Virus record (IMG/VR): IMGVR_UViG_2799112719_000001
Length of the DNA stretch: 64,000 nt
Strand: one strand, 5' to 3'
Source: a virus
The notes under the pieces were generated by a model. The model was given only the letters and a program-made list of their open reading frames with translations, was not told where the DNA came from and did not search any database. Of the stretch, positions 3,429 to 49,425 are shown piece by piece. The first letter of the stretch is position 1; every line of letters starts with the position of its first letter. The position numbers were made by a program, and so were the translations under genes.

Positions 3429-4529
3429 ATGCCAGCTCCAACAATTTCCAATCATTTCGCCATCACTGCCCTTCAGGAAGGTATCACTGTGCAAGGCTCA
3501 TTGCGCATCGACGGTACGCTCTCCCAGAACTGGAATAACAATACCCAAAAGGCTATTCCTAACTGGAAAGCGACGCAGGCCGATCCCAATCCCAGCCAGC
3601 CGCGTGTCTATCCCGTCATCCGTAAGGGTGTGCAGTATATGAACAACTCACAGTTGGTCAATACGCATTGGCTCTATAACGATGTGGTGATTACCTTTGA
3701 CAATAATGGTGATTCTACCAACTTCCTTGATGCTAACAATGATCCGCTCTTCCACGTCGGCACTACTACGGTGTCATTTGGTGGCTCCAGCTACCTGGTG
3801 CCCTGTCTGACTGTCATCGCTAACCTGGCTTCGCCTACCAACATTGACCTTGATACTATCGGTTATGAGGGTTCAGTGGAGATTCTGGGTAAGCAGCAGC
3901 CGTTCCAGTGTCAGGTGGATGTCAAGATTGCTCAGATGTCTGCACAGGGATTCTTGGGCCTGCTGTCGCCTGAGTCAGCCATTATCACCGCACAGGACCA
4001 GGCTGTCACCGTCACGGCCTCGCTCTATGGTGAGGATGGCCAGTCGCCTGCCACATGGTACTGTAAGTGGTACAATGCCGGTACGGGTGATGAGTATGTG
4101 GCTGCAAGAAACAACCACTCCGTCACGTTCTATGGTGCAGACTTCGTGGATAACCTCATTCTCCGCTGTGACTTCTTTACGGATGCAAGCTATAACAACC
4201 GTGTGACAACGGCCTTTGCATCTATTGATGATACGCAGGATCCTGAGTATCTGTATATCTCGCTCAATGGTTCCAACAGCGATTTCAGCGGCCAGCTGTC
4301 ACCAGGTGAGTCATGCACTGTCACGGCTTGGGTGGCCACCATGGAGGATGCAACGGCTATCAATACGCAGTACACCAACTTTACTTGTGTATTGTACGAC
4401 GGCCAGCAGAACGAGATTACCAGTGGCCCGACAATGACCACCTCTTCCAATCGTGGTACTATCGTGCTACCCTACGACTTCGTGGCTCAGTCTGGCTATA
4501 AGGTCAACGGTATCGTCACCGCTTCTTAG
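3429..4529 (+). CDS. Putative virion surface or short fibre protein (366 aa)
   Basis: Sits directly upstream of the giant fibre gene. Its N-terminus, PTISNHFAITALQEG, shares a motif with the N-termini of the 4637 and 12466 ORFs. Confidence 0.6.
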   Translation: MPAPTISNHFAITALQEGITVQGSLRIDGTLSQNWNNNTQKAIPNWKATQADPNPSQPRVYPVIRKGVQYMNNSQLVNTHWLYNDVVITFDNNGDSTNFLDANNDPLFHVGTTTVSFGGSSYLVPCLTVIANLASPTNIDLDTIGYEGSVEILGKQQPFQCQVDVKIAQMSAQGFLGLLSPESAIITAQDQAVTVTASLYGEDGQSPATWYCKWYNAGTGDEYVAARNNHSVTFYGADFVDNLILRCDFFTDASYNNRVTTAFASIDDTQDPEYLYISLNGSNSDFSGQLSPGESCTVTAWVATMEDATAINTQYTNFTCVLYDGQQNEITSGPTMTTSSNRGTIVLPYDFVAQSGYKVNGIVTAS

Positions 4530-4556
4530 TGCGCCTGTCCCCTATCCCCTCTCGTG

Positions 4557-4585
4557 CCCGCTGGTTTCCCCAGCGGGTTTATTTT
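4557..4585 (+). terminator. Intrinsic terminator (family-B hairpin)
   Basis: CCCGCTGG (4557-4564) pairs with CCAGCGGG (4570-4577), followed by TTTATTTT. Confidence 0.7.
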
Positions 4586-4625
4586 GTCCCTACCTTTCCC
4601 CCCGTTTCCCCTATCTTTGCTCAAA
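4578..4625 (+). promoter_or_regulatory. Late promoter copy 1
   Basis: TTTTGTCCCTACCTTTCC..CGTTTCCCCTATCTTTGC. The -7 box TATCTTTG lies at 4612-4619. The same roughly 45-nt block recurs at 15136 and 23031. Confidence 0.6.
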
Positions 4626-4636
4626 AATAAGATGCA

Positions 4637-7600
4637 ATGAATCCAGTCATATCACAGACATTTGCCGTTACAGCAGTGAAGCCCACCATATCGGTGGATC
4701 ACATCGACAATTACTATATCACCGAGGCTTCTGGCATAATGCCAGCAGTCAGCGATTCACGCTGGCAACTGGTCCCCGATGGTCAGCAGGTGCCCGTTCC
4801 TACGGCATCGGCTCCATATCTGTGGCATAAATATATCACTTACCTTACCGATGGCTCTGCGCTCGACCCCATCGTGGAGTTTGCCGGTTCGCTGGGGCAG
4901 AATGGTTTTGACTATGACCTGGTGCCGTCGCATTCGGCTATCATCAAGGATGCCAACGACAATCTTTCACCGGCCAACGTCTCTTGCTCGCTCATTAAAC
5001 GTAATGCCGATGGTTCTGCTGAAACGCAGTCAGTGGTGCCGTCGGGCTACAGCGTCATTGTCTATCGTGACAACACTTCATCGTCTTATACGCTGGGGTC
5101 TAACGTCTCTACTGCCGGCATTACATCGGTTATCACATTTGTACTGAAATATGGCAATATCGAGGTGGAGCGTCACGATCTCCGCGTCATTGCCGAGGGT
5201 GCTGAAGGTCTTACTGGTCGTGGTATTCAGTCACAGGACACTCGTTTCAAGGCTACAACGACCAACAGTATTCCTGCTACTCCTACCAACGATACTACAT
5301 GGAATACCTGGTCATCGCTCGCTTCCTGTGGCTACTCGCAGTCAACGCCCTACCTCTGGAAGTGTATCAAGACGGTGTATCTCAATGGTAATGGCACTAC
5401 TGAAACGGAATATCTTGTTGAAGGTCCTACGGTGTGGGGACAGGATGGTGCAGACGCTATCTTTATCGACTTGGATAATGAAATGGATGCCATACCATGT
5501 GATAGCACGGGTAAGGTTACGGTGGCTACTACGCTCGTGACCTATGCCCGCCTATATCGTGGCTCTGCTATCATCAATGATGGCCTGACGGCTCCTGTGG
5601 CTGCCAACTGCAAGTTGGGTTCTGTCACACCTACCATCACGCCCCAGCAGGACGGTGCCTATAAACTGGAATGGGTGTTTGCTGTCAATACACAGCTGTC
5701 TGCCGACCGTCTCACGGCCAGCATTGCCATCGGCTATGCCAGCAAGTCCTACCCTGCCGTCTTCACGGCCAATGTCGTGAAGTCTGGTGCGCCTGGTGTC
5801 TCTCCGGCTATCTATCAGCTCTTGCTCTCGCAGAACGATGCTTCTTTTGCGCGTAACAGCAGCAACCAGCTCACACCGGCTTCTATCTCTATCCGTTGTG
5901 GTTACACCAAGAATTACAATGGCTCTATCGTAAAGCATGACGGAGACCAGGCTTCAGACCTTCAGAATATCGACGGTACTTATAACATCCTCTATCGTGC
6001 CATTGCTGCTAATGGCTCCCCTGGTAGTTGGGCATGGATGAAAGACCTCTCATCGTCTAACTTCTACTTGGTTATCCCCAACAGCACCACGAATACAGCC
6101 TACGAGTTTATCTTGACTACCGCTAACTCTGCTTCAGCTGTGGCCGAGTCAAACATCTTTGACCGTGAAACGCTCCCCATCAACAAAGACGGTTTGAATG
6201 GTGCCCCTGGTGAGTCTGCATTGATCATCGACCTGGATAACGAACAGGATGCTTTTGGTACCAAGGCCGACGGTAAGATAGCAGCTTCTGTCTCGCGTGA
6301 GACTACTGCCTCGATGTTCTACGGTATTACACCGCTGTCTGCTACTTATTCAACGACGAAAACCTATGAGGATGGTACGACATGCGGCTCTGAGGTGTCT
6401 GTGGATGTCAACTCTGAGACGGGAAAGATAACTGTCACCATGGGTAGCACGTCGCATGTCTATAACAAGACTATTTTCATCGACATAACAGGTACGGCCA
6501 GCGGCTACACCGACAAACCCAAGACGGCCCGATTTACTATTCAGCCCCAGGCTGCCGGTACTGATGGCCTTACACCTGTCATCTACCAGCTGATGCCGTC
6601 ACCGTCTTCACTATCATTTGCGCGTAATGCGGATGGTACGCTGAACATGGCGAACAATGTTATTACGGGCTATGTGAAGAAAATCGTGGACGAAGAGACT
6701 ACTATCCTTAGTTCACTCTCTGGCTATCGCATCTACTATGGCTATGGCAATCCAGCCACACCATCCAATTTTATCAGTGTGGGTGATACGATTACCGTCT
6801 CTGCCTCTAATTCGGCCTCTTATGCCTCGTTGGTCCTGGAACTGTGGAAGATGAACGGCTCCACGAAGGAAAAGCGTCTCGACCGCGAGACCATCCCCAT
6901 CAATAAGGAGGGTCAGAAGGGACAGAAGGGCGACCCTGGCGATACGCCATTCATTATCGACATCGACAATGAAATGACCTCTATCCCCATCAGCACCGAT
7001 GGTAAGGTAGAGTCTCAGATCACGCTCGACTTTCACCTGGCGGCTTATTATGGCTCTACCAATGTCATCAACGACTGTACGGTGTCGCTTGTGGGTACTG
7101 CGCCCACTGGCTTTAATGTCGATGTAGTAACGGATAAGACTACACCCCGTATCGTCATTGCTGCCAACACACAGCCTGCCGAAATTACTGAGCTGCGCTT
7201 CCAGGTGGTACATAGTGACTATGGCACCCGTCAGACAGTATTCTCTATTGCTGCCGTGAAGTCAGGCGGTAAGGGTCAGGATGCGGTCATGTACGAGCTG
7301 CTGCCGTCTGATACGGCTGTCACCATCGGACGTGACAATAACGGCGACTTGAATCAGACTACGGCTACATTGAAGTGCGGCTATACCAAGCGCATAGGCA
7401 ATCAGACTCCATCAACAAATTCGGATGTCAGCAGCTCTTTCGATGGTTACAATATCTATTTTCGTCGTAAGAATCGTAGTAATGGTACATGGTCTTCATT
7501 CTATCTCTACTCTTACTATAAGTCGTACTACCTCACTGATTTCTCGGTAACAACCTATTCCGACATTCAGTTTATCATTTGTACGAATACCTCTTATACG

Positions 7601-10600
7601 GTAACTGAGGGGAATGTCACGGGCCTTATCGACCGTGAGACGGTGCCTATTGTGCTCGATGGTCAGAAGGGTAAGCAGGGAGATAATGCCTTTGTGCTCG
7701 ACATTGACAACGAAATGGCTGCTATCCCTGTCAATGAACAGGGAAAGACTACTGGAGCTTTGGCTCTTGATTTCGGACTCAATGCTTTCTATGGTACTAC
7801 ATCTGTACTTAATGATTGTACGGTAACTGTTGATGGATCTGCGCCCAATGGCTTTACCGTGGATCTGACCGATAAGTTCAATCCGTCTATCAGCATCGCT
7901 GCCAATATCCAACCTGCCGAAGTAACTGACATTGTACTGAAGGCCGTACATGCCACCTATGGCACCCGCTACGCCACCTTTACCGTCTGTGCTGTGAAGT
8001 CCGGCGGTCGTGGTGAGGATGCTGAAATCTATCAGCTTAAACCCAGCCACACCGCTCTCCAGTTTGCCCGTAACAGTAGTGGCGACCTCACAGGTTCCTA
8101 TACTTTGACCTGTCAGATTCAGAAGACGGTTGGCTCTACAACCTCTAACCATGATTCACTTTCTGGTTACTATATCTACTATGGTTGGGATGGTGCAGCA
8201 AGCCCTTCCACGTCTTTGCCTACATCTGGCCGTTCTGTTGGCACCTCCGAGGCTGCCAGCCATACCAGCGTAGTGCTCGAACTGTGGCGTGGCCAGCGTA
8301 GTGCTTCCGGCTCCGTCCGTCTCGACCGCGAGACCATCCCCATCCTGAAGGATGGTACAAAGGGCGGTCCTGGCGATCCTGGTAATGGTATCGCCAATAT
8401 CTATTTCTATCGTATGTTTACGCAGTCATTCGAGGCTCCTGCTGAGAATGATAGCGGATGGATTGCATCTACCAGTAGCTCTTATCCAACCGAGGCCGGA
8501 CTGACAAAGGAAAACCGTTACCTTTGGCAAAAGAAACTGACCTCTTACACTCGCTCTGATAATCCTACCATCGAGATTTCTCTACTCGCACAGTTTGATT
8601 CTGGAGTACAGGAAAATCTGCTCGAAGACACTGCATTTCTCTCTGAGGGACAGATGGAAGCATGGGATGTAAAAAATGGTAATATCTCTCCTAACATGGT
8701 AGGAGCACATAATGCCTTTTACCTGACACCTGATTTTGGCCTAAGTGTAACTGAAATGCTGAAACAGAAGGTATATCGCTCTGGCGAACTGCAAAAACTG
8801 AAAGGTAATACCTGGTACACGCTTTCTTTCTGGGCTGCTATGACAAACTATGTCGATTTGTTGAGTTCGACAGTTTCTAACAATGTTAGCGATTATTGGA
8901 TTGTAAATGGGTCAAGAAAGGGATTTACTCTTGCTCCTGGAAGATCTGCTGTTGTCACTGTCACAGGTCGTTGTGCTTCATCCAACGCTTATCTTCGTGT
9001 TTATTGTTTTACTACAGATGATAATGGAAATTGGCTTCAAAGTACGAATGTAGAAATCAAAACGACATATAGCAGAACACTCTCGTTTAAGATTACGAAT
9101 AACCAATCAGCGGATAAGGTGTTCTATGTAGAGGGTTATGTTTATAAGTCTGATGGATCGAAAAACCATGAGAGTGGTACGAACTATCGTTGTTTCATGT
9201 CACTTATTCGTGTTGATCGTGGAGCACAATTATTGACTTATCTGCATAGAGAGGATAATGGTGGTGCTATTCTTCGATCTGCTGGTAATCCTTGGTATGT
9301 CAATGGCAAGAAAATAACGGCTGCTACACAATGGGATGATAAAGGATATGAATGGACGCTACATGATGGAACTAAGGCTTGCGTACAGGATGGTACTTAT
9401 ATCCAATTCTCACAAGATGGAGCTGTGCGCTGGCAATTAAATCCTGGCCACCATAGATATTCTGTTACTTTCAAAACAGATGCTTTGGCTGATAATGTGA
9501 ACTATTTTGTTCTTTTCAGATTCTGGGAAACATCGAATGGCGGCTGGATCTCCATGCCAAAACTCGAAGAGAATACCATCGCCTCTGAATGGATAGAACA
9601 TACAAACGACCGCATGGCTGATGACATTCAGCATGTCTATGATGGTCCCTGGGAGTCAGGAAAGACATACTTCTATGGTGGTGGTACAGGTGTTCGCCAT
9701 GTAGTCCGTGCCAAGGAAAGCGTCAGTGGTGCCATGACCTATTGGCGCATGAAACAGCGTACTACTTCCAGTGGCTACACTTCCACCATACAGCCCTACA
9801 ATGACACATCGCATTGGGAAAAGGCTTCATACTTGAAGTTCCTCGCCTCTGACTTTGCGCTCATCGAAAACGCCATTATCAATTTCCAGCAGACTAACCG
9901 CATCCTGGTATATAATTCTGTCGGCAATGTTGCTGCTGGTATGGGTGGTGCAGAAGGAGGCTCTAATGATTATCCTCTCTGGGTGGGTGCCGACTATGCT
10001 AACCGTGCTACTGCTCCATTCCGTGTAACTTTGCTCGGAAAGATGTATGCTTCTGGTTGTGTAATCTCTGGTGATAGTATATTTGAGGGTACGCTTCGAG
10101 GTGTCACAGGATCGTTCAGACAGTTGAATGCAGTCGATAATAATGGTAATGTGAAAGCGTCCATCGGTTTTAATTCTTCTGAAGGAAAACTGTACTTTGA
10201 AGGTGACATGCAGCACCAAGGCTATGACAGCGTGAATAGTCGTAGTTATAGATTCTTAACTTCCGATGTATGGGGACGTGGATCTTTCGCAACTCGACAA
10301 AGATTGACTGTGATAGTATGTGGATCATACGCCTATTATTTCCATAAAGGATTGCCTTCATCATGGGATGTATCTACTTCTGTATATGTTAATCTTCCTT
10401 CTGTTACTTCTGGAGGTCGTACTTATTATCGCATTCCTTGCTATAGTCCTGATAATTATAGTGCGCTTGCTGGTATGCCGGTAGATACGGTGCTTTTCCG
10501 TATTACATCGAATACCACTTATTACTACTATCTCGGACTGGCCGCTTCACAGCGTGTCGTTGTGGCAAATATCAATGACGATCAGAACAATGTGAAAATC

Positions 10601-42649: not shown

Positions 42650-43513
42650 ATGGAAAGACTGAAAGAAGTTTTGGCTTTTGCCAACAACAAGGGTGGGGTA
42701 GCGAAGACTACCACCGTGCAGAACGTGGCTGCCGGAATGCTGAGACGTGATCCGTCGCTGCGCATCCTCTGCATTGACCTGGACCCGCAAGGGAATCTCT
42801 CATCGCTCCTGGGATGGAGGGAAAAGATGAAACAGTATCACGAGCAGAAGCACTCGACGCTGACGGTGGCCGACGCTCTGAGGGATGGCGATAACAATCA
42901 CCTGCCAGTGTATCAGAGCCGCGAGGGGCTGTTCTATGTGCCTGCATCGCCCATGCTGGCCGAGATAGATCCTGACCTGCACCGCCAGATGCAGCCGAAG
43001 CTGGTGCTGGCCTCGCTGTTTGGTAACGACATTCACTACATGGATAACCTCTACATGGAGGCAGAGCGACTGGATGGAGACTACATAGAGGACTGCTTCG
43101 ACTATGTGCTGATAGACTGTGCTCCTGCGCTGTCAGAACTGACCTACAACGCCCTGGGTGCCGCTACGGGTGTAATCATACCCGTGCAGCTGGGTTCGCT
43201 CAGTGTGGACGGCATAGGGCGCATGATGGAGGCTTACAAGGCGGTTAAGCGGAAACTAAACAACGACCTGGATATGCGGGGCCTGCTGATAGTGATGGCC
43301 GATGAGCGCACTAACCTGGCACGAGAGACCAGCGACTTCCTGCGCGACACCTACGATGCCGACATGTTCAAGACGCGCATCCGTCAGTGTGTGAAGGTGG
43401 GTGAAAGCCAGTTCCAGCATCAGGACATCTTCGACTATGCGCCTGACTGTACCGCTGCCCGCGACTACGACGATTTTATCACGGAATTGTTGAACAATGA
43501 TAATGAGGAATAA
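42650..43513 (+). CDS. parA: ParA/Soj-family partition ATPase
   Basis: Deviant Walker A FANNKGGVAKTTT, followed by IDLDPQGN and VLIDCAP motifs. Confidence 0.85.
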   Translation: MERLKEVLAFANNKGGVAKTTTVQNVAAGMLRRDPSLRILCIDLDPQGNLSSLLGWREKMKQYHEQKHSTLTVADALRDGDNNHLPVYQSREGLFYVPASPMLAEIDPDLHRQMQPKLVLASLFGNDIHYMDNLYMEAERLDGDYIEDCFDYVLIDCAPALSELTYNALGAATGVIIPVQLGSLSVDGIGRMMEAYKAVKRKLNNDLDMRGLLIVMADERTNLARETSDFLRDTYDADMFKTRIRQCVKVGESQFQHQDIFDYAPDCTAARDYDDFITELLNNDNEE

Positions 43514-44327: not shown

Positions 44328-45797
44328 ATGACTATGGCAAAGAAAAACAAAGACGATAAGATGCAGGCACTCATCAAGAGCGACAATGCCATTATCCGTG
44401 AGCTGCGCGATCAGAAGTGGATTTATAATCCCAAGGTGTTCGCACAGGTGGCTGGTGACTTCTCGCTGATGCACCAAAGGGTTCTGTTGGGTGTGCTCGA
44501 AAAGCTGCAAGACCGTATAGCCTATTCTGCTTCTGAGCATCAGAAGAATCAGCAGCTTTGGCTCCCGCTCTTCTCGCCGGACGAAATGAATACGTCGGTG
44601 GACTTCGAGATAGACCCAAGAGATATTGGTGTGACTCCTGGCCACTATCCTGAGTTGGCACAGGCTTTGTCAGATCTGATAGGTCTGAAGATGGGTTGGC
44701 CGAAGCGTAAGGGTAATAAGACGGTGTATCAGTTTGTGTCATTCTTCAGTCGCCTGGAAATGCCGATGACTGAAAGCGGATGGCGCACAGGAAAGATCCG
44801 CGTAAAGATGGATAAGGAGAATGTCAACGACTTCTTATCCATGGAGCGTGGCTATACTGACCACATCGCTAAGATTGCTCAGTTCTCGAAGAAACAGCGT
44901 ACTCCCAGACTGTATATCTACCTTTCGACGTTCAAATATAAGAAGCGTGACGAAGTAGAGTACCCAGAACTGTGCGAGTTCCTTGGCATTGATGATGAAA
45001 GTTATGTGGAGTCGCATAAGGCAGAGAATCCTAATGTGAAGCCTACGGATAATCCTTTTCATAAGTTCTCGAAGGTGAAGAAACTGATTCTGGACCCATC
45101 GAAGCAGGAAATGGATAAGTTCTCGGCTGAGAAGAAAATCGACTTCACGTTTACTTACGAGCCGATGTATAAGGATGGCCGTAAGAAGGGTAATCCTACG
45201 CATATTGAGTTTGTCATCGTTCCAGGACCGCTGGGAATTGAGCGTGAACAGGACCGCAAACGTCATGGGCAGGTGCAGAGTGTCATCAGTTCGCTTACGA
45301 AATGGTGTCCTGACATCAAACCTTACGAGGTGGTGGAACTGGCCAAGGAGGTGCAGGATGACTGGCTGGATGACTTCTGTAACTTTGCCTACGACGATGT
45401 GCGCCATCAGGTAGAGAAGACTCAGCCAGACCATGTGGCAGAATATGTCATTACGATGCTCTCTAACTGGATTAAGGATCGTCAGATGGCCGCAGAGCGT
45501 AAGCGTATAGAGGACCAGAGACAGTATGAGCTATTTGAGCGTCAGGAGGCAGAAAGTAAGTGGCCTGCTTGCTTTGCTGAGATCTCGGCATCTATACCTG
45601 TCACTTCCAGTCAGCTTTATTTCTGTGACTATGGGAATGCAGAGATAAAAGGGGTGGTTAGAAAGACCATCACTTTGTGGATAGTGAATGAGGCATTTAT
45701 ATCGGTGATTGAAAGCAAAGAGAATCTGCCGGCCTATGAGGGTGCTATCCGTAAATATTATGGTCAAATAGCCGTTCAATACAAATTGATAAGGTAA
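44328..45797 (+). CDS. Rep_3-like plasmid replication initiator (489 aa)
   Basis: The N-terminal LIKSDNAIIRE...FSLMHQRVLLGVLEKL fits the Rep_3 initiator pattern. The gene is flanked by iterons. Confidence 0.65.
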   Translation: MTMAKKNKDDKMQALIKSDNAIIRELRDQKWIYNPKVFAQVAGDFSLMHQRVLLGVLEKLQDRIAYSASEHQKNQQLWLPLFSPDEMNTSVDFEIDPRDIGVTPGHYPELAQALSDLIGLKMGWPKRKGNKTVYQFVSFFSRLEMPMTESGWRTGKIRVKMDKENVNDFLSMERGYTDHIAKIAQFSKKQRTPRLYIYLSTFKYKKRDEVEYPELCEFLGIDDESYVESHKAENPNVKPTDNPFHKFSKVKKLILDPSKQEMDKFSAEKKIDFTFTYEPMYKDGRKKGNPTHIEFVIVPGPLGIEREQDRKRHGQVQSVISSLTKWCPDIKPYEVVELAKEVQDDWLDDFCNFAYDDVRHQVEKTQPDHVAEYVITMLSNWIKDRQMAAERKRIEDQRQYELFERQEAESKWPACFAEISASIPVTSSQLYFCDYGNAEIKGVVRKTITLWIVNEAFISVIESKENLPAYEGAIRKYYGQIAVQYKLIR

Positions 45798-45888: not shown

Positions 45889-46491
45889 ATGAGAAAAAAA
45901 TCACTGCTTTTCTGTTTTTTGTGTTGCTATATCATAGCAGCCTTATCCTCGTGTTCTGCTACTCAGACTACCATCGACCACTCAGAGAGCCACCATATAG
46001 ATAGCAGCTTTGTGCAGATGCAGTTGCAGCAGTTGGTCAGTCAGCAGCAGGCCCGTTACGACTCTCTGATGCGTGTGGTGCAGCAGCGTGACTCGATTTC
46101 CCAGAATATCAACGAGCAGGAGCGTGAGCACATCACCGAAACGGTTACGTCGTGGATCGACTCGCTGGGGCGCAAGGTGACTCAGGAGGCCCGTACCATC
46201 GACCGCCAGCGTGACCGATCAGAGGAACTGCGTCAGCAGCGTATCATCAATGAGCAGGAGCAACGCATCCAGTCGTGCCAGGAGCGCATCGACTCGCTCT
46301 ATAATCTCTTACTCGAAAAGACGGCTCTGGAGGTAAACGACACAACCAATTACCACAAAGAGGTCATCAAACCGGCACACACGCCATCGTTCCTACAACG
46401 TGTGCATGACTTCTTTACTACCTTGGTCAATGTCATCGTCTTTGCTGCTATCTTCGCCTTTATCATTCGCTGGAAACGCCGTAAGTCGTAA
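45889..46491 (+). CDS. Lipoprotein with a coiled-coil middle and a C-terminal TM anchor (unimolecular-spanin-like architecture)
   Basis: Lipobox AALSS|C, a Gln/Arg/Glu-rich helical middle, and a C-terminal LVNVIVFAAIFAFII helix followed by RWKRRKS. Confidence 0.7.
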   Translation: MRKKSLLFCFLCCYIIAALSSCSATQTTIDHSESHHIDSSFVQMQLQQLVSQQQARYDSLMRVVQQRDSISQNINEQEREHITETVTSWIDSLGRKVTQEARTIDRQRDRSEELRQQRIINEQEQRIQSCQERIDSLYNLLLEKTALEVNDTTNYHKEVIKPAHTPSFLQRVHDFFTTLVNVIVFAAIFAFIIRWKRRKS

Positions 46492-47472
46492 GATACTCCC
46501 TACACCTGAAGCCTTTTCGTGGCTCAAACTCTTCAAAGGAATGGGCTACGAAATGGGCTTTTTTGTTGACCCATCCTGCCATGTCCTTTTGCCATTGTGG
46601 AATGATATGGTGTGGGTTGTTAGGATCACGGTAGGGCTGGGCATGTGGATAGACATAGCGGCCCTGATGTGAGGCCCGCGTCTCTTGTGTACGATGCCAC
46701 CAATAGGTGATGCGCTCGTAGCACTCCCTGAAGTCTGAGGTGAGCATGGTGTATAGGAAGTATTGCCCTGTGAAGCCGTAGCGGTTGATCATATTCATGG
46801 CCCGCTCACATTCTGCTATCTGTCCGTGTGTGTCACAGCCGAAGCGGATGCGGTTGTTATCGAGCCACTTCACTTTTGCCAGCAGCTGTGCTATCTCATC
46901 CGTTACCAGTCGTGCATCGAGGGCCTGATTGAAGTCCACTCGGTAGCCTCTTTCTATAATCTTTTGCAGCTGCTGTATGCAGTAGTCGCCAGCAGCCAGA
47001 ATATTGTTATCCATCAGCACTAACTTACGACGGCCCTCAATGGCTATTTCGTCCACATCCATATATGGCCGGATGGCTCCCTCTTTCTTGGGCACCACAC
47101 ACCAACGGCATTTGTTAGGACAGCCGCGAGTGAGGAATCCGTAGGCAGTATCTTTCGGGATGTTAGGATAGATGGAGTAGTCTGGCTGCAAACGGTCTAT
47201 TTCGTCGGGCAACTGGCTCAGAGGATCATAGCCGGTGCCTCCTTTGATGATTTTGTCTGCATCGTAGATATAAGTATCGTCTGGGGAAAAGTTAAACACT
47301 TTCGACATATACACAATGTCGTAGTGCTCCATGGGGCTTGCCCATGAGATTTGCCCCCCCCCCTATTACGCCAGTATCTCGCAATCTTAGCGAGTGCGAG
47401 ATTGGGGTAAATCGTGGCTCCCCACTTTTTTTTCTTGGCGTGTCCGTCCACGTCCACAAGTCCTATCTTCAT
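46463..47472 (-). CDS. Radical SAM enzyme, split by a frameshift in a G10 tract (phase-variable, pseudogene or sequencing error)
   Basis: The downstream part carries CPNKCRWC (CX3CX2C). The upstream 40 codons (MKIGLVDVDG...YPNLALAKIARYWR) continue into the downstream frame only if the G-run is 11 or 8 nt long. Confidence 0.7.
47354..47363 (-). repeat. Homopolymer: G10 on the coding strand
   Basis: TTGCCCCCCCCCCTATT on the plus strand. Confidence 0.95.
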
Positions 47473-47567
47473 ATATTAAGCATGTTTGAACAGTCTTATT
47501 TTGCAGAAATCTGTCACATTAAGCAGGTTTGAAACTTCTTAATTTACAGATACCCGTCAAATTCTAA

Positions 47568-47810
47568 TCAATTCTTACCTTTACTCTGTTGTGCCATGGC
47601 CATCAGTTTACGCTCTTCGTCGGTGGTGGTGTCAAGCGTGATTTGTTTGAAGTCTGGGTATTTCTCCCATATCAGATCAGAGGCTTCAAGAGCCTTTGAT
47701 ACGGTGTCTTTTATCAAGTCCTGAAATCCGTCCAGGTTCTTAATCTCGTTGGTCTCAGGTTCAATGCGGAAAGTTCTGTCATTGATGCCCTGTGCTAATA
47801 TAATTTTCAT
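47568..47810 (-). CDS. Hypothetical small protein (80 aa)
   Basis: Preceded by the TTCAT element (47811-47835). Confidence 0.6.
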   Translation of the reverse strand: MKIILAQGINDRTFRIEPETNEIKNLDGFQDLIKDTVSKALEASDLIWEKYPDFKQITLDTTTDEERKLMAMAQQSKGKN

Positions 47811-47838
47811 AATTTAATGAATTGATGAATTACTTAAA

Positions 47839-47979
47839 TCATTTATTTTTCTTGTGAAGAATGACCCTGTTATACGTTTCCTCAATAGCTTTATATTCCT
47901 GTATTGTCATTGGTATAGGTGGGGTCATAGGACGTAACATTGGACGTTTTTTAGGCAATGAGTATTTTTTGTTTGACAT
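47839..47979 (-). CDS. Possible basic small protein (46 aa), below the ORF-track cutoff
   Basis: MSNKKYSLPKKRPMLRP... It fills the gap between the methylase and the next gene. Confidence 0.3.
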   Translation of the reverse strand: MSNKKYSLPKKRPMLRPMTPPIPMTIQEYKAIEETYNRVILHKKNK

Positions 47980-47994
47980 AATCGTAATCTTTCT

Positions 47995-48808
47995 TCATAT
48001 CTCGAAATCTAATGTTAGCTGTCTGCTTGCTTCTCTGATGCGTTTTTTAGCAACCTTGAAATACTTTGGGTCTTTCTCGATGCCGATATACTGCCTTTTC
48101 TCCATGATGGCCGCTACACAGGTGGTGCCGCTTCCCATCGTATTGTCTAAAATTACCCCCCCCCATTTGGCTATAAGTCCTTATCAGGTAGCGTAGCAGA
48201 TCCACGGGCTTTTGTGTCGGATGGAACACAGTGGTCTCATGCTCTTTCTGAATATGGATGATGCTCTGAGGAAATTTCTCGTTGGGTCGGGTAGGGGCCA
48301 CCTTGCGTATTTGCTTATCGTAGTCATACGTTCTGCCGGTCTTGAACTGTCCGTAACAGTTGTTAGTCCTGGGGTGCTCCAACTTCCCCTGGGAATGGTT
48401 TGGCTCTCCGATGCCCATCTGAGGGTTATAGACAGGCAGCTGCTTATAGAACACACAAATATCCTCATGGCAACGCATGGGCATACGGTTGGCATTCAGA
48501 AAGCCGGTGCCGCGTCCTTTATCCCATATCAGATTGTATCTCCAGAGCTTCCTATTGCTTTGCATGAGGTCGCTGGTAAACATTCCCTGGGCAAAGAGTA
48601 TAATTGCACCATTGGGCTTAATAATGCGCTCATATTGCGCCCAAAGTGGCTGGAACGGAATTATTCGGTCCCATTGCGCATTAGGGTTGTCTTTGTGAAG
48701 CACCTGGTATGGCAGATCGCAGATGATGGCATCAATGCTTTCGTCTGCTATCCCTGTCATCAGGTCCAGGCAGTCGCCTAAGTATATGTTGTTTGGCTCT
48801 ACGTTCAT
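47995..48808 (-). CDS. Beta-class N6A/N4C DNA methyltransferase (N6_N4_Mtase), split by a frameshift in a G9 tract
   Basis: The in-frame part has DLPY (a DPPY variant) and HPTQKP. The SAM-binding motif I (ILDNTMGSGTTCVAA) is encoded downstream in another frame and is restored by a G-run of 8 or 11. Confidence 0.8.
48156..48164 (-). repeat. Homopolymer: G9 on the coding strand
   Basis: AATTACCCCCCCCCATTT on the plus strand. Confidence 0.95.
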
Positions 48809-49425
48809 TTCGTTTCTATTGAGTTTCCATCGTTTGTGACCTTCAGGCGAAACATCTTCAGGCGGTCATCACCATCTGAGAGGTTGGCATTGAGCCAGGC
48901 CATGATGTTCTCGCCCACGAACTCCATGATATCCTTTGTGTCGTAGGTGTCGCAGGATGGATAGGTCATTTCCACTTCGATCGTCAGCTTCTTATAGGGC
49001 TTCGGATAATTGAGCATCTGGTGTTTCCATTTCTCCATGTCCTCGAAAGATGGTTTGAATTGGGGAAAGATGATCTTATCAGGGATAGAGCCTAATGTGC
49101 TCTTTGGAGCAGGCACACTCTTTACCTCTTCCAACGCCTGAAAGAAAGCCTCGAAGGGTAGTCTGTGAAAGCCTAACTCATCCTGTGGATGCAATTCGGC
49201 ATATTGCTTATCGAAGAGAGACACGATGCTTGGTACTGGTCTGCCGCTAATGATACATATCATTCTTGCTGAGTATTTGATATGGCGGTGCTTGGTGCCT
49301 CGTGCCAGTTTTACGCCTGGTATTGGCGTATCGTCGTAGATGATAGTCGTATCGAAGTCGTACACCTGTCCTACTTCAAACTTCGCTCCTTCGATTTCCA
49401 GTCCTATAATACACTTCGCTTTCAT
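48805..49425 (-). CDS. Hypothetical protein (206 aa)
   Basis: ATGA stop/start overlap with the methylase gene. Confidence 0.65.
   Translation of the reverse strand: MKAKCIIGLEIEGAKFEVGQVYDFDTTIIYDDTPIPGVKLARGTKHRHIKYSARMICIISGRPVPSIVSLFDKQYAELHPQDELGFHRLPFEAFFQALEEVKSVPAPKSTLGSIPDKIIFPQFKPSFEDMEKWKHQMLNYPKPYKKLTIEVEMTYPSCDTYDTKDIMEFVGENIMAWLNANLSDGDDRLKMFRLKVTNDGNSIETK

Follow-up and report, generated by a model that had tools for sequence, protein, structure and literature searches.

Poly-G tracts as candidate phase-variable switches in a DNA-modification module of rumen and gut phages

Phase-variable DNA methyltransferases are well established in bacteria, among them the type III mod genes of Haemophilus, Neisseria, and Helicobacter. 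The sequence considered here is a 64,000-nucleotide stretch of the virus record IMGVR_UViG_2799112719_000001 (the whole of which we call the window), in which two nearby minus-strand genes, one for a radical-SAM protein and one for a beta-class DNA methyltransferase, are each interrupted by a poly-G tract. The nearest described systems are both bacterial and viral. The type IIG gene cj0031 of Campylobacter jejuni is a phase-variable methyltransferase gene controlled by poly-G (PMC4889913). Campylobacter phages of the genus Fletchervirus are reported to have hypermutable poly-G tracts (Sorensen et al. 2021, Cell Rep 35:109214). In phage T2, a poly-A tract in agt toggles DNA glucosylation, and the trade-off was demonstrated there, with TgvAB attacking modified DNA and McrA/BC attacking unmodified DNA (Gomez, Barrick and Waters, bioRxiv 10.1101/2025.10.21.683753). 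Bordetella phage BPP-1, too, has a methylase gene with a poly-G tract (Liu et al. 2004, as related in a preprint that cites it).

The poly-G tracts described below exist, toggle the reading frames of the genes that carry them, and are the fastest-changing sites between genomes. We consider it probable that they are simple-sequence contingency loci which switch several DNA-modification genes by slipped-strand mispairing.

Poly-G tracts of the window and the genes they break

On the plus strand the two tracts read as C10 and C9, corresponding to G10 and G9 in the coding strand (Table 1). They were the sole G/C runs of at least 7 nucleotides (nt) within the 64 kb. Runs of at least 6 nt numbered three, including one other run of 6, compared with about 15 expected under a first-order model, and the same model predicted about 0.18 runs of at least 9 nt in the window. 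GGG was the rarest glycine codon of the window (5.9% of Gly codons), and a single Gly-Gly pair out of 73 was coded GGGGGG.

The tracts were rebuilt at different lengths and translated in all frames. A length of G8 or G11 produced a 335-amino-acid (aa) radical-SAM protein and a 270-aa methyltransferase, and the other lengths (G7, G9, G10, and G12) led to early stops. Both genes are OFF in the window, the radical-SAM gene at G10 and the methyltransferase gene at G9. At G10 the radical-SAM gene encodes an 84-aa N-terminal product, and gene callers report a 289-aa internal open reading frame (ORF) at 46463-47332. At G9 the methyltransferase product has 253 aa and lacks motif I, which binds S-adenosylmethionine (SAM). 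A Pfam search assigned the upstream piece of the split gene to PF01555 positions 1 to 180 and the downstream piece to positions 184 to 221, and the G8-repaired protein matched positions 1 to 221 with 103.8 bits (cutoff, 26.7). An initial annotation made from the letters alone had claimed that these were the only two long G/C homopolymers of the window, both in minus-strand coding sequence, that G10 splits the radical-SAM gene, that G9 cuts a beta-class methylase ahead of its SAM-binding motif, and that the two genes share the ON lengths G8 and G11 and are both OFF; the run counts, the rebuilt translations, and the meeting of the two PF01555 pieces at positions 180/184 bore this out.

The motifs read from the methyltransferase translation were DLPY (residues 31 to 34) and then MGSGTT near the C terminus, so that a (D/S)PPY-type catalytic motif precedes an FxGxG-type SAM motif, which is the beta-class order. 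The top PADLOC models for this protein were type II and orphan methyltransferases. Its tract sits between HPTQKP...YSQM and GG-VILDNTMGSGTT, at the turn preceding strand beta-1 of motif I. The radical-SAM tract corresponds to a loop of an N-terminal Rossmann-like domain, where helix 25-36 leads into strand 40-43, with the frame across the tract reading MKIGL...RNRGG and then QISWASPMEHYD...CPNKCRWC. Every tract that was mapped, in the window or in relatives, codes for Gly-Gly at a helix-to-strand turn of a Rossmann-like domain (for example, GGVILD, GGYFLAFSGGKDS, GGYFVTSRD, GGQIEW, and WGGRIWLNPPY), and the extra glycine of a G11 allele should be tolerated in such a turn.

Tract lengths among near-identical genomes

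The comparison set comprised about 160 related loci (L001 to L164). These relatives were reached by protein-based searches only, and a megablast search of the 3.5-kb region against the INPHARED phages gave no match. In close relatives, as many as five or six genes, all within one early-region module, were found to carry the same device, with up to six tracts. The module genes in relatives are beta, NPPY, and Dam-type methyltransferases, a PAPS-reductase-like gene with two tracts, and the radical-SAM gene.

Tract lengths were recorded for 30 genomes that are near-identical and come from separate samples; genomes duplicated exactly between collections had been identified first. Extra contigs were fetched with the exact OFF and ON protein sequences, a route that biased the radical-SAM column for L139 to L158 and left the other columns unaffected. 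The beta methyltransferase tract (ON at G8) was G7 in 4 genomes, G8 in 15, G9 in 8, and G10 in 1, and the NPPY methyltransferase tract (ON at G9) was G8 in 13, G9 in 3, G10 in 1, and G11 in 1. The first PAPS-reductase tract (ON at G8) was G7 in 6, G8 in 13, G9 in 6, and G10 in 1, and the second (ON at G7) was G6 in 1, G7 in 10, G8 in 11, and G9 in 4. The radical-SAM tract (ON at G8) ranged from G6 to G10 and was also represented by five in-frame interrupted alleles. Lengths thus spanned G6 to G11 across the census, and nearly every genome carried its own combination of ON and OFF states. The exact 289-aa OFF product of the radical-SAM gene was found in 85 index blocks and the exact 335-aa ON product in 81.

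A comparison of tract lengths across related genomes had been proposed beforehand, and it revealed lengths from G6 to G11 between near-identical genomes, with tracts as the sole differences over 11-kb stretches, an outcome that favors the phase-variable reading of the initial annotation. L005 and L042 were identical over 11,006 bp except for single-G insertions or deletions (indels) in two tracts. The pair L007 and L049 showed a single difference in 10,995 bp, an indel in one tract. When genomes were compared two by two, 40% of the tracts they share already differed at a divergence of no more than 0.2%, with a plateau near 0.6 from a divergence of about 0.5%, and there were essentially no indels outside the tracts. 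On the basis of these pairwise differences, the rate of change per tract is hundreds of times the rate per base at ordinary sites.

If the tracts were stable and in frame in nature, such length differences would be homopolymer miscalls made in sequencing or assembly, an explanation that we regard as quite unlikely. Homopolymers of 8 to 11 bases are the most error-prone sites on every platform, pure error, too, would leave contigs that differ at their tracts and nowhere else, and the lengths cluster tightly near G8. However, the majority length was out of frame at two tracts, being G8 in 13 of 18 genomes at the NPPY site and in 11 of 26 at the second PAPS-reductase site, and a single "true" length would therefore leave the NPPY and PAPS-reductase genes broken. 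The spread of lengths reached 3 to 5 bases (G6 to G11), and both states were found inside single studies run through one pipeline. Both states also recurred whether assembly was by MEGAHIT, SPAdes-type programs, or Logan, as well as among GenBank genomes, two of which derive from isolates, and a high-coverage Illumina consensus seldom shifts at G8 to G9.

The interrupted genes were also compared for signs of decay. Downstream of the tract, each of the 18 radical-SAM genes that have one kept an intact ORF (292 to 302 codons) regardless of tract length, and the ratio of nonsynonymous to synonymous substitution rates (dN/dS) was 0.03 to 0.08, with dS saturated between lineages. In spite of the rarity of GGG codons, the tract holds the same site across these lineages with saturated synonymous change, and the interrupted tract alleles (GGGGTGAG, GGGGTGGG, and GGGGAGGG) were all in frame. 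Repaired radical-SAM translations were scored against the family profile. Homologues elsewhere (L082, L087, L089, L105, L114, and L123) had tracts near positions 76, 144, 168, and 245 of the profile, four sites in addition to the one in the window; the family thus has tracts at five positions, and both ON and OFF lengths occur at them among relatives. The beta methyltransferase of L054 likewise has its tract at another position. The differing positions in the radical-SAM family indicate convergent acquisition, and it is difficult to account for such repeated, independent gain of tracts by the same families unless switchability is selected for. Judged by these comparisons, the genes are under strong purifying selection and the tracts are kept by selection.

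It might instead be supposed that both genes are plain pseudogenes, decaying remnants in which the G runs are incidental, since both are broken in the window and the module gains and loses whole genes between relatives. This we consider highly improbable. The initial annotation had named a frameshift common to all relatives, with further decay, as the mark of pseudogenes, and the relatives were found to have intact downstream ORFs under the low dN/dS given above. Secondary stops or frameshifts were seen in no relative, about half of the near-identical genomes hold an intact allele, and the tracts have been maintained against codon bias and have arisen repeatedly.

The wider module, its radical-SAM protein, and its carriers

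In 1.2 Mb of related loci, 127 of the 131 G/C runs of at least 7 nt were G on the sense strand of module genes. The tract-bearing families were PF01555, Dam-type PF05869, the PF00145 C5 methylase, the phrog_799 NPPY methyltransferase, PF01507 (PAPS-reductase-like), and the radical-SAM family. Roughly half of the 56 distinct tract sites lay in these named families and the others in small or unknown ORFs; automatic longest-ORF repair picked wrong frames for a few distant tracts. The NPPY methyltransferase of relatives, which has one tract, replaces the 46-aa ORF at 47839-47979 and is absent from the window. Whole genes of the module vary between genomes (window positions 47567/47568 and 47839-47995; L001, L005, L036, and L152), and some relatives are without the beta methyltransferase. 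Judged by the gene content of these relatives, the pair in the window is no isolated oddity but what is left of a larger module under poly-G control. A more distant relative, L016, has an imperfect direct repeat of about 470 bp with about 94% identity downstream of its radical-SAM gene (4338-4806 and 5962-6427; also present in L067), which may reflect duplication of part of a gene or may be a template/variable repeat pair.

The sequence on the 3' side of the tracts was strongly biased to Gn-Y-A-W-T-T. TA or CA came next at 33 of 46 sites, compared with 20.5% of ordinary G runs (p of about 1e-13), A was at +2 in 41 of the 56 tract sites, and the bias was present in two codon phases. The structural context, namely the codons of the beta strand that follows, accounts for the T-rich part of the flank and not for the A. 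Two other accounts of the flank were rejected. Most sites misfit TAnnTTTG, the form expected if TAnnTT were a Bacteroidetes -7 promoter box, and an immediate out-of-frame stop is true of the methyltransferase (GGG TAA at G7 and G10) and fails at the TATTT and CAAAT sites.

A conserved 3' flank is a possible recoding signal, and transcriptional slippage or ribosomal frameshifting might then yield full-length protein at any DNA length, leaving the length variation as a tolerated by-product. Long homopolymers are known to provoke RNA polymerase slippage in other systems, mainly at A/T runs, and a near-random relation between length and frame would be tolerable if decoding were independent of length. 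We nevertheless judge this explanation unlikely. A programmed shift needs one fixed offset, whereas relatives would need -1, +1, +2, or none at the same site; the interrupted alleles are always in frame, which shows that the zero-frame product is the functional one; no stimulatory structure was seen downstream, none having been sought; and slippage is as a rule weaker on G:C than on A:U hybrids.

The repaired radical-SAM protein matched phrog_9298, "radical SAM domain protein," over its full length (E value of 2e-97). The cysteines of its CX3CX2C motif (C117, C121, and C124) were invariant among 12 diverse and 35 closer homologues. The score against PF04055 was 18.0 bits, below the gathering score of 29.5; Pfam, NCBIfam, and PDB sequence searches returned sub-threshold matches only, and PADLOC returned none. 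An AlphaFold2 model was obtained with a predicted local distance difference test score (pLDDT) of 86.9 and a predicted template modeling score (pTM) of 0.85, and in a Foldseek search against the PDB its top 14 matches were all radical-SAM enzymes (E values of 6.5e-10 to 5e-4). The model thus assigns the protein a radical-SAM barrel fold. The nearest folds were those of MtaB, MiaB, RimO, and the B12-type enzymes MgmA and TsrM (E values of 6.5e-10 to 2e-5; template modeling scores of 0.53 to 0.60), with which the protein shares its architecture, a CX3CX2C radical-SAM barrel preceded by a Rossmann-like domain at the N terminus. Unlike the methylthiotransferases, it has no conserved cysteine before residue 117 that could serve an auxiliary [4Fe-4S] cluster and no TRAM domain by Pfam, and its identity to the nearest folds is 10 to 14%. 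Membership in the methylthiotransferases (MiaB/RimO/MtaB) was therefore ruled out, the auxiliary-cluster cysteines and TRAM domain being missing and the likeness being one of fold.

One homologue is fused to a ParB-like domain. This protein of 711 aa, encoded at 6001-8136 of the Alistipes-binned contig L125, has the radical-SAM homologue as its N-terminal part, and its C-terminal part resembles a ParB/Srx-type DNA-binding domain by eye. Both genes of the window had been described initially as DNA-modification-type genes. For the methyltransferase this is well founded; for the radical-SAM protein the label draws on its neighborhood, the ParB fusion in this one homologue, and a fold closest to radical-SAM enzymes that modify nucleic acids, from which we infer a role in DNA modification. 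A 7-deazaguanine pathway, with the radical-SAM protein as QueE and a PP-loop protein as QueC, was also considered and is not supported: matches of the PP-loop protein were to PAPS_reduct, BrxP, and SspD, the family of the radical-SAM protein is a different one, and no transglycosylase was seen. The matches of the relatives' PAPS-reductase-like protein to BrxP and SspD in PADLOC were weak.

Two further features of the radical-SAM gene were recorded. Near its N terminus, a T8 run on the plus strand (47426-47433), corresponding to A8 and to Lys-Lys-Lys-Lys codons, is in frame here and is interrupted in relatives (AAGAAAAAGAAG). Its 3' end overlaps that of a convergent 200-aa ORF (45889-46491) by 29 bp (46463-46491).

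The methyltransferase is probably an orphan without a restriction partner, as judged from its surroundings. The ORFs adjoining it had no Pfam, PHROG, or PADLOC match, and no neighbor was recognizable as a nuclease. The upstream 206-aa ORF is kept in that place in relatives and occurs also in genomes without the methyltransferase, and is for that reason an unlikely nuclease partner. The two small ORFs between the tract-bearing genes matched no Pfam or PHROG family, and the 80-aa one was called in all close relatives.

Table 1. Positions of the features discussed, in window coordinates
Feature	Coordinates	Strand	Remarks
Reverse transcriptase, 448 aa	796-2142	+	phrog_1423, E value of 3e-68
ParA-like partition ATPase (phrog_164, E value of 2e-50) and weak Rep3 initiator match	42650-43513 and 44328-45797	+	
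Radical-SAM gene (phrog_9298 family), frameshifted	46463-47472	-	335 aa at G8/G11
Poly-G tract G10, radical-SAM gene	47354-47363	-	Codons Arg37-Gly-Gly; OFF; ON at G8 or G11
Junction	47567-47568		Relatives (96-98% identity) insert a PAPS-reductase-like gene (PF01507) of ~1.08 kb with two tracts; absent in window
Small conserved ORF between the tract-bearing genes, 80 aa	47568-47810	-	
Small conserved ORF between the tract-bearing genes, 46 aa	47839-47979	-	
Beta-class N6A/N4C DNA methyltransferase (PF01555), frameshifted	47995-48808	-	From ORFs, Pfam, and repaired translation
Poly-G tract G9, methyltransferase gene	48156-48164	-	OFF; ON at G8 or G11
206-aa ORF	48805-49425	-	Stop overlaps methyltransferase start by 4 nt

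The source element is a phage or phage-plasmid of about 100 to 106 kb from rumen metagenomes. Its nearest relatives are IMG/VR viral contigs and rumen assemblies, some of them binned with Prevotellaceae or Bacteroidaceae metagenome-assembled genomes, and this binning points to a Bacteroidota host. The window also codes for an endolysin and an NAD-dependent ligase. Its reverse transcriptase is probably part of a diversity-generating retroelement, and the ParA-like and Rep3-like pair may be a plasmid-like maintenance module through which the element persists as a phage-plasmid.

Homologues of the radical-SAM protein with 56% identity were found in Bacteroides phage LoVEphage, Phocaeicola phage PV4-TP1, and Bacteroides phage BI-TP1. 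The LoVEphage-type homologue sits in a similar block of methyltransferase and PAPS-reductase genes, and LoVEphage-type relatives also carry a reverse transcriptase. Four GenBank records of this type (L159 to L162: PQ571302.1, PQ571265.1, MW660583.1, and OY731433.1) were included in the comparison set, and two of the four genomes (PV4-TP1 and BI-TP1) come from antibiotic-induced isolates. The Dam-type methyltransferase, at locus position ~8325, is annotated as two coding sequences in all four records, the tract being G9, G7, G6, and G9 where the in-frame length is G8. The PAPS-reductase tract is G8, G8, G10, and G10 in the four records, and a C8 to C10 run is present upstream of a C5 methyltransferase. 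Tracts of this kind therefore also exist outside metagenome assemblies. In the complete genome of PV4-TP1 (about 40% G+C), runs of at least 8 nt were confined to the early/DNA-metabolism half, with none in the structural module.

Proposed switching of DNA modification and comparison with known systems

During replication of phage DNA, the G runs would gain or lose a G through slipped-strand mispairing. The frames of the beta methyltransferase and radical-SAM genes would shift in and out of register, each gene switching independently, and the phage population would comprise genomes with many different sets of DNA-modification enzymes. Whatever enzymes an infected cell produced would mark all of the DNA packaged there; a burst would then bear the marks of the infecting genotype, with part of the progeny genomes already coding for another state. 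The likely benefit would be bet-hedging between hosts, in that the marks would block the restriction systems of some hosts and elsewhere would be penalized by modification-dependent (type IV) nucleases or other costs. By analogy with T2, the selective logic is likely to be protection from restriction versus exposure to modification-dependent nucleases. A phasevarion-like regulatory side effect is possible if the phage persists as a lysogen or plasmid.

Several observations weigh against contingency switching by slipped-strand mispairing. The modal length was G8 at every site, including those where G8 is OFF (the NPPY methyltransferase and the second PAPS-reductase tract). The overall ON fraction did not depart far from one third, the value for lengths that bear no relation to frame, and because of this, selection on the ON/OFF state is not visible. 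Heterogeneity within a population and reversibility were deduced from differences between assemblies. The Gn-Y-A-W-T-T flank bias is not predicted by simple slippage, and RNA polymerase slippage on G8 to G11 could let OFF alleles leak.

A broader and more speculative proposal, to which as a whole we attach a low probability, is that a large group of Bacteroidota phages from gut and rumen, the highly prevalent LoVEphage included, share the module as a combinatorial "epigenetic switchboard." It would toggle ordinary methylation together with an undescribed DNA modification made by the phrog_9298 radical-SAM protein, possibly with the PAPS-reductase-like protein; the methylome of the host would also be reprogrammed in temperate or plasmid-like carriage; and the Gn-Y-A-W-T-T flank could hint at a creation or tuning of tracts more specific than passive slippage.

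Should contingency switching hold, common gut and rumen Bacteroidota phages would yield progeny with many DNA-modification states from one genome. This would help to explain how they cope with hosts that have both classical and modification-dependent restriction, and it possibly bears on the wide range of hosts that has been reported for LoVEphage. Where methyltransferase, PAPS-reductase, or radical-SAM genes look "broken" in these phages, they should not be taken for pseudogenes or silently corrected. The cultured phages PV4-TP1 and BI-TP1 make the switching idea directly testable, and the ON and OFF alleles offer a natural genetic handle on the function of the radical-SAM family.

In the literature searched, no description was found of poly-G tracts or homopolymers in Bacteroides, Prevotella, or LoVEphage phages, which is not proof of absence. 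A multi-gene poly-G module, the inclusion of radical-SAM and PAPS-reductase-like genes in it, and its spread over rumen and human-gut Bacteroidota phages all appear to be undescribed in that literature. The mechanism itself is known from bacterial phasevarions, T-even loci, Campylobacter phage poly-G tracts, and the BPP-1 methylase. As in the phasevarions, a simple repeat, often poly-G, lies within a methyltransferase ORF, and changes of one unit switch the enzyme; in bacteria the genome-wide methylation pattern changes with the switching of the methyltransferase. Unlike the phasevarions, the present module is carried by phages, its methyltransferases look like orphans, and several modification genes are switched in one module, with a presumed pay-off in the protection or exposure of phage DNA rather than in the control of a bacterial regulon.

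Among phages, Fletchervirus is similar in having G7 to G11 tracts in several genes and mixed progeny; its tracts are reported to lie in receptor-binding protein genes and to alter host recognition, whereas those described here lie in DNA-modification genes of Bacteroidota phages. BPP-1, as described in the citing preprint, resembles the window both in the poly-G tract of a phage methylase and in having a diversity-generating retroelement, where the window has a reverse transcriptase; the BPP-1 tract is in a single gene and, according to that preprint, was noted in passing without further study. The likeness to T2 agt is that a homopolymer within a phage DNA-modification gene toggles modification. 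In T2, the variant frequency in a stock was about 7e-4 and the wild type was uniformly ON (bioRxiv 10.1101/2025.10.21.683753), whereas here the runs are longer and of G, the assembled consensus differs between samples, and a single module has up to six tracts.

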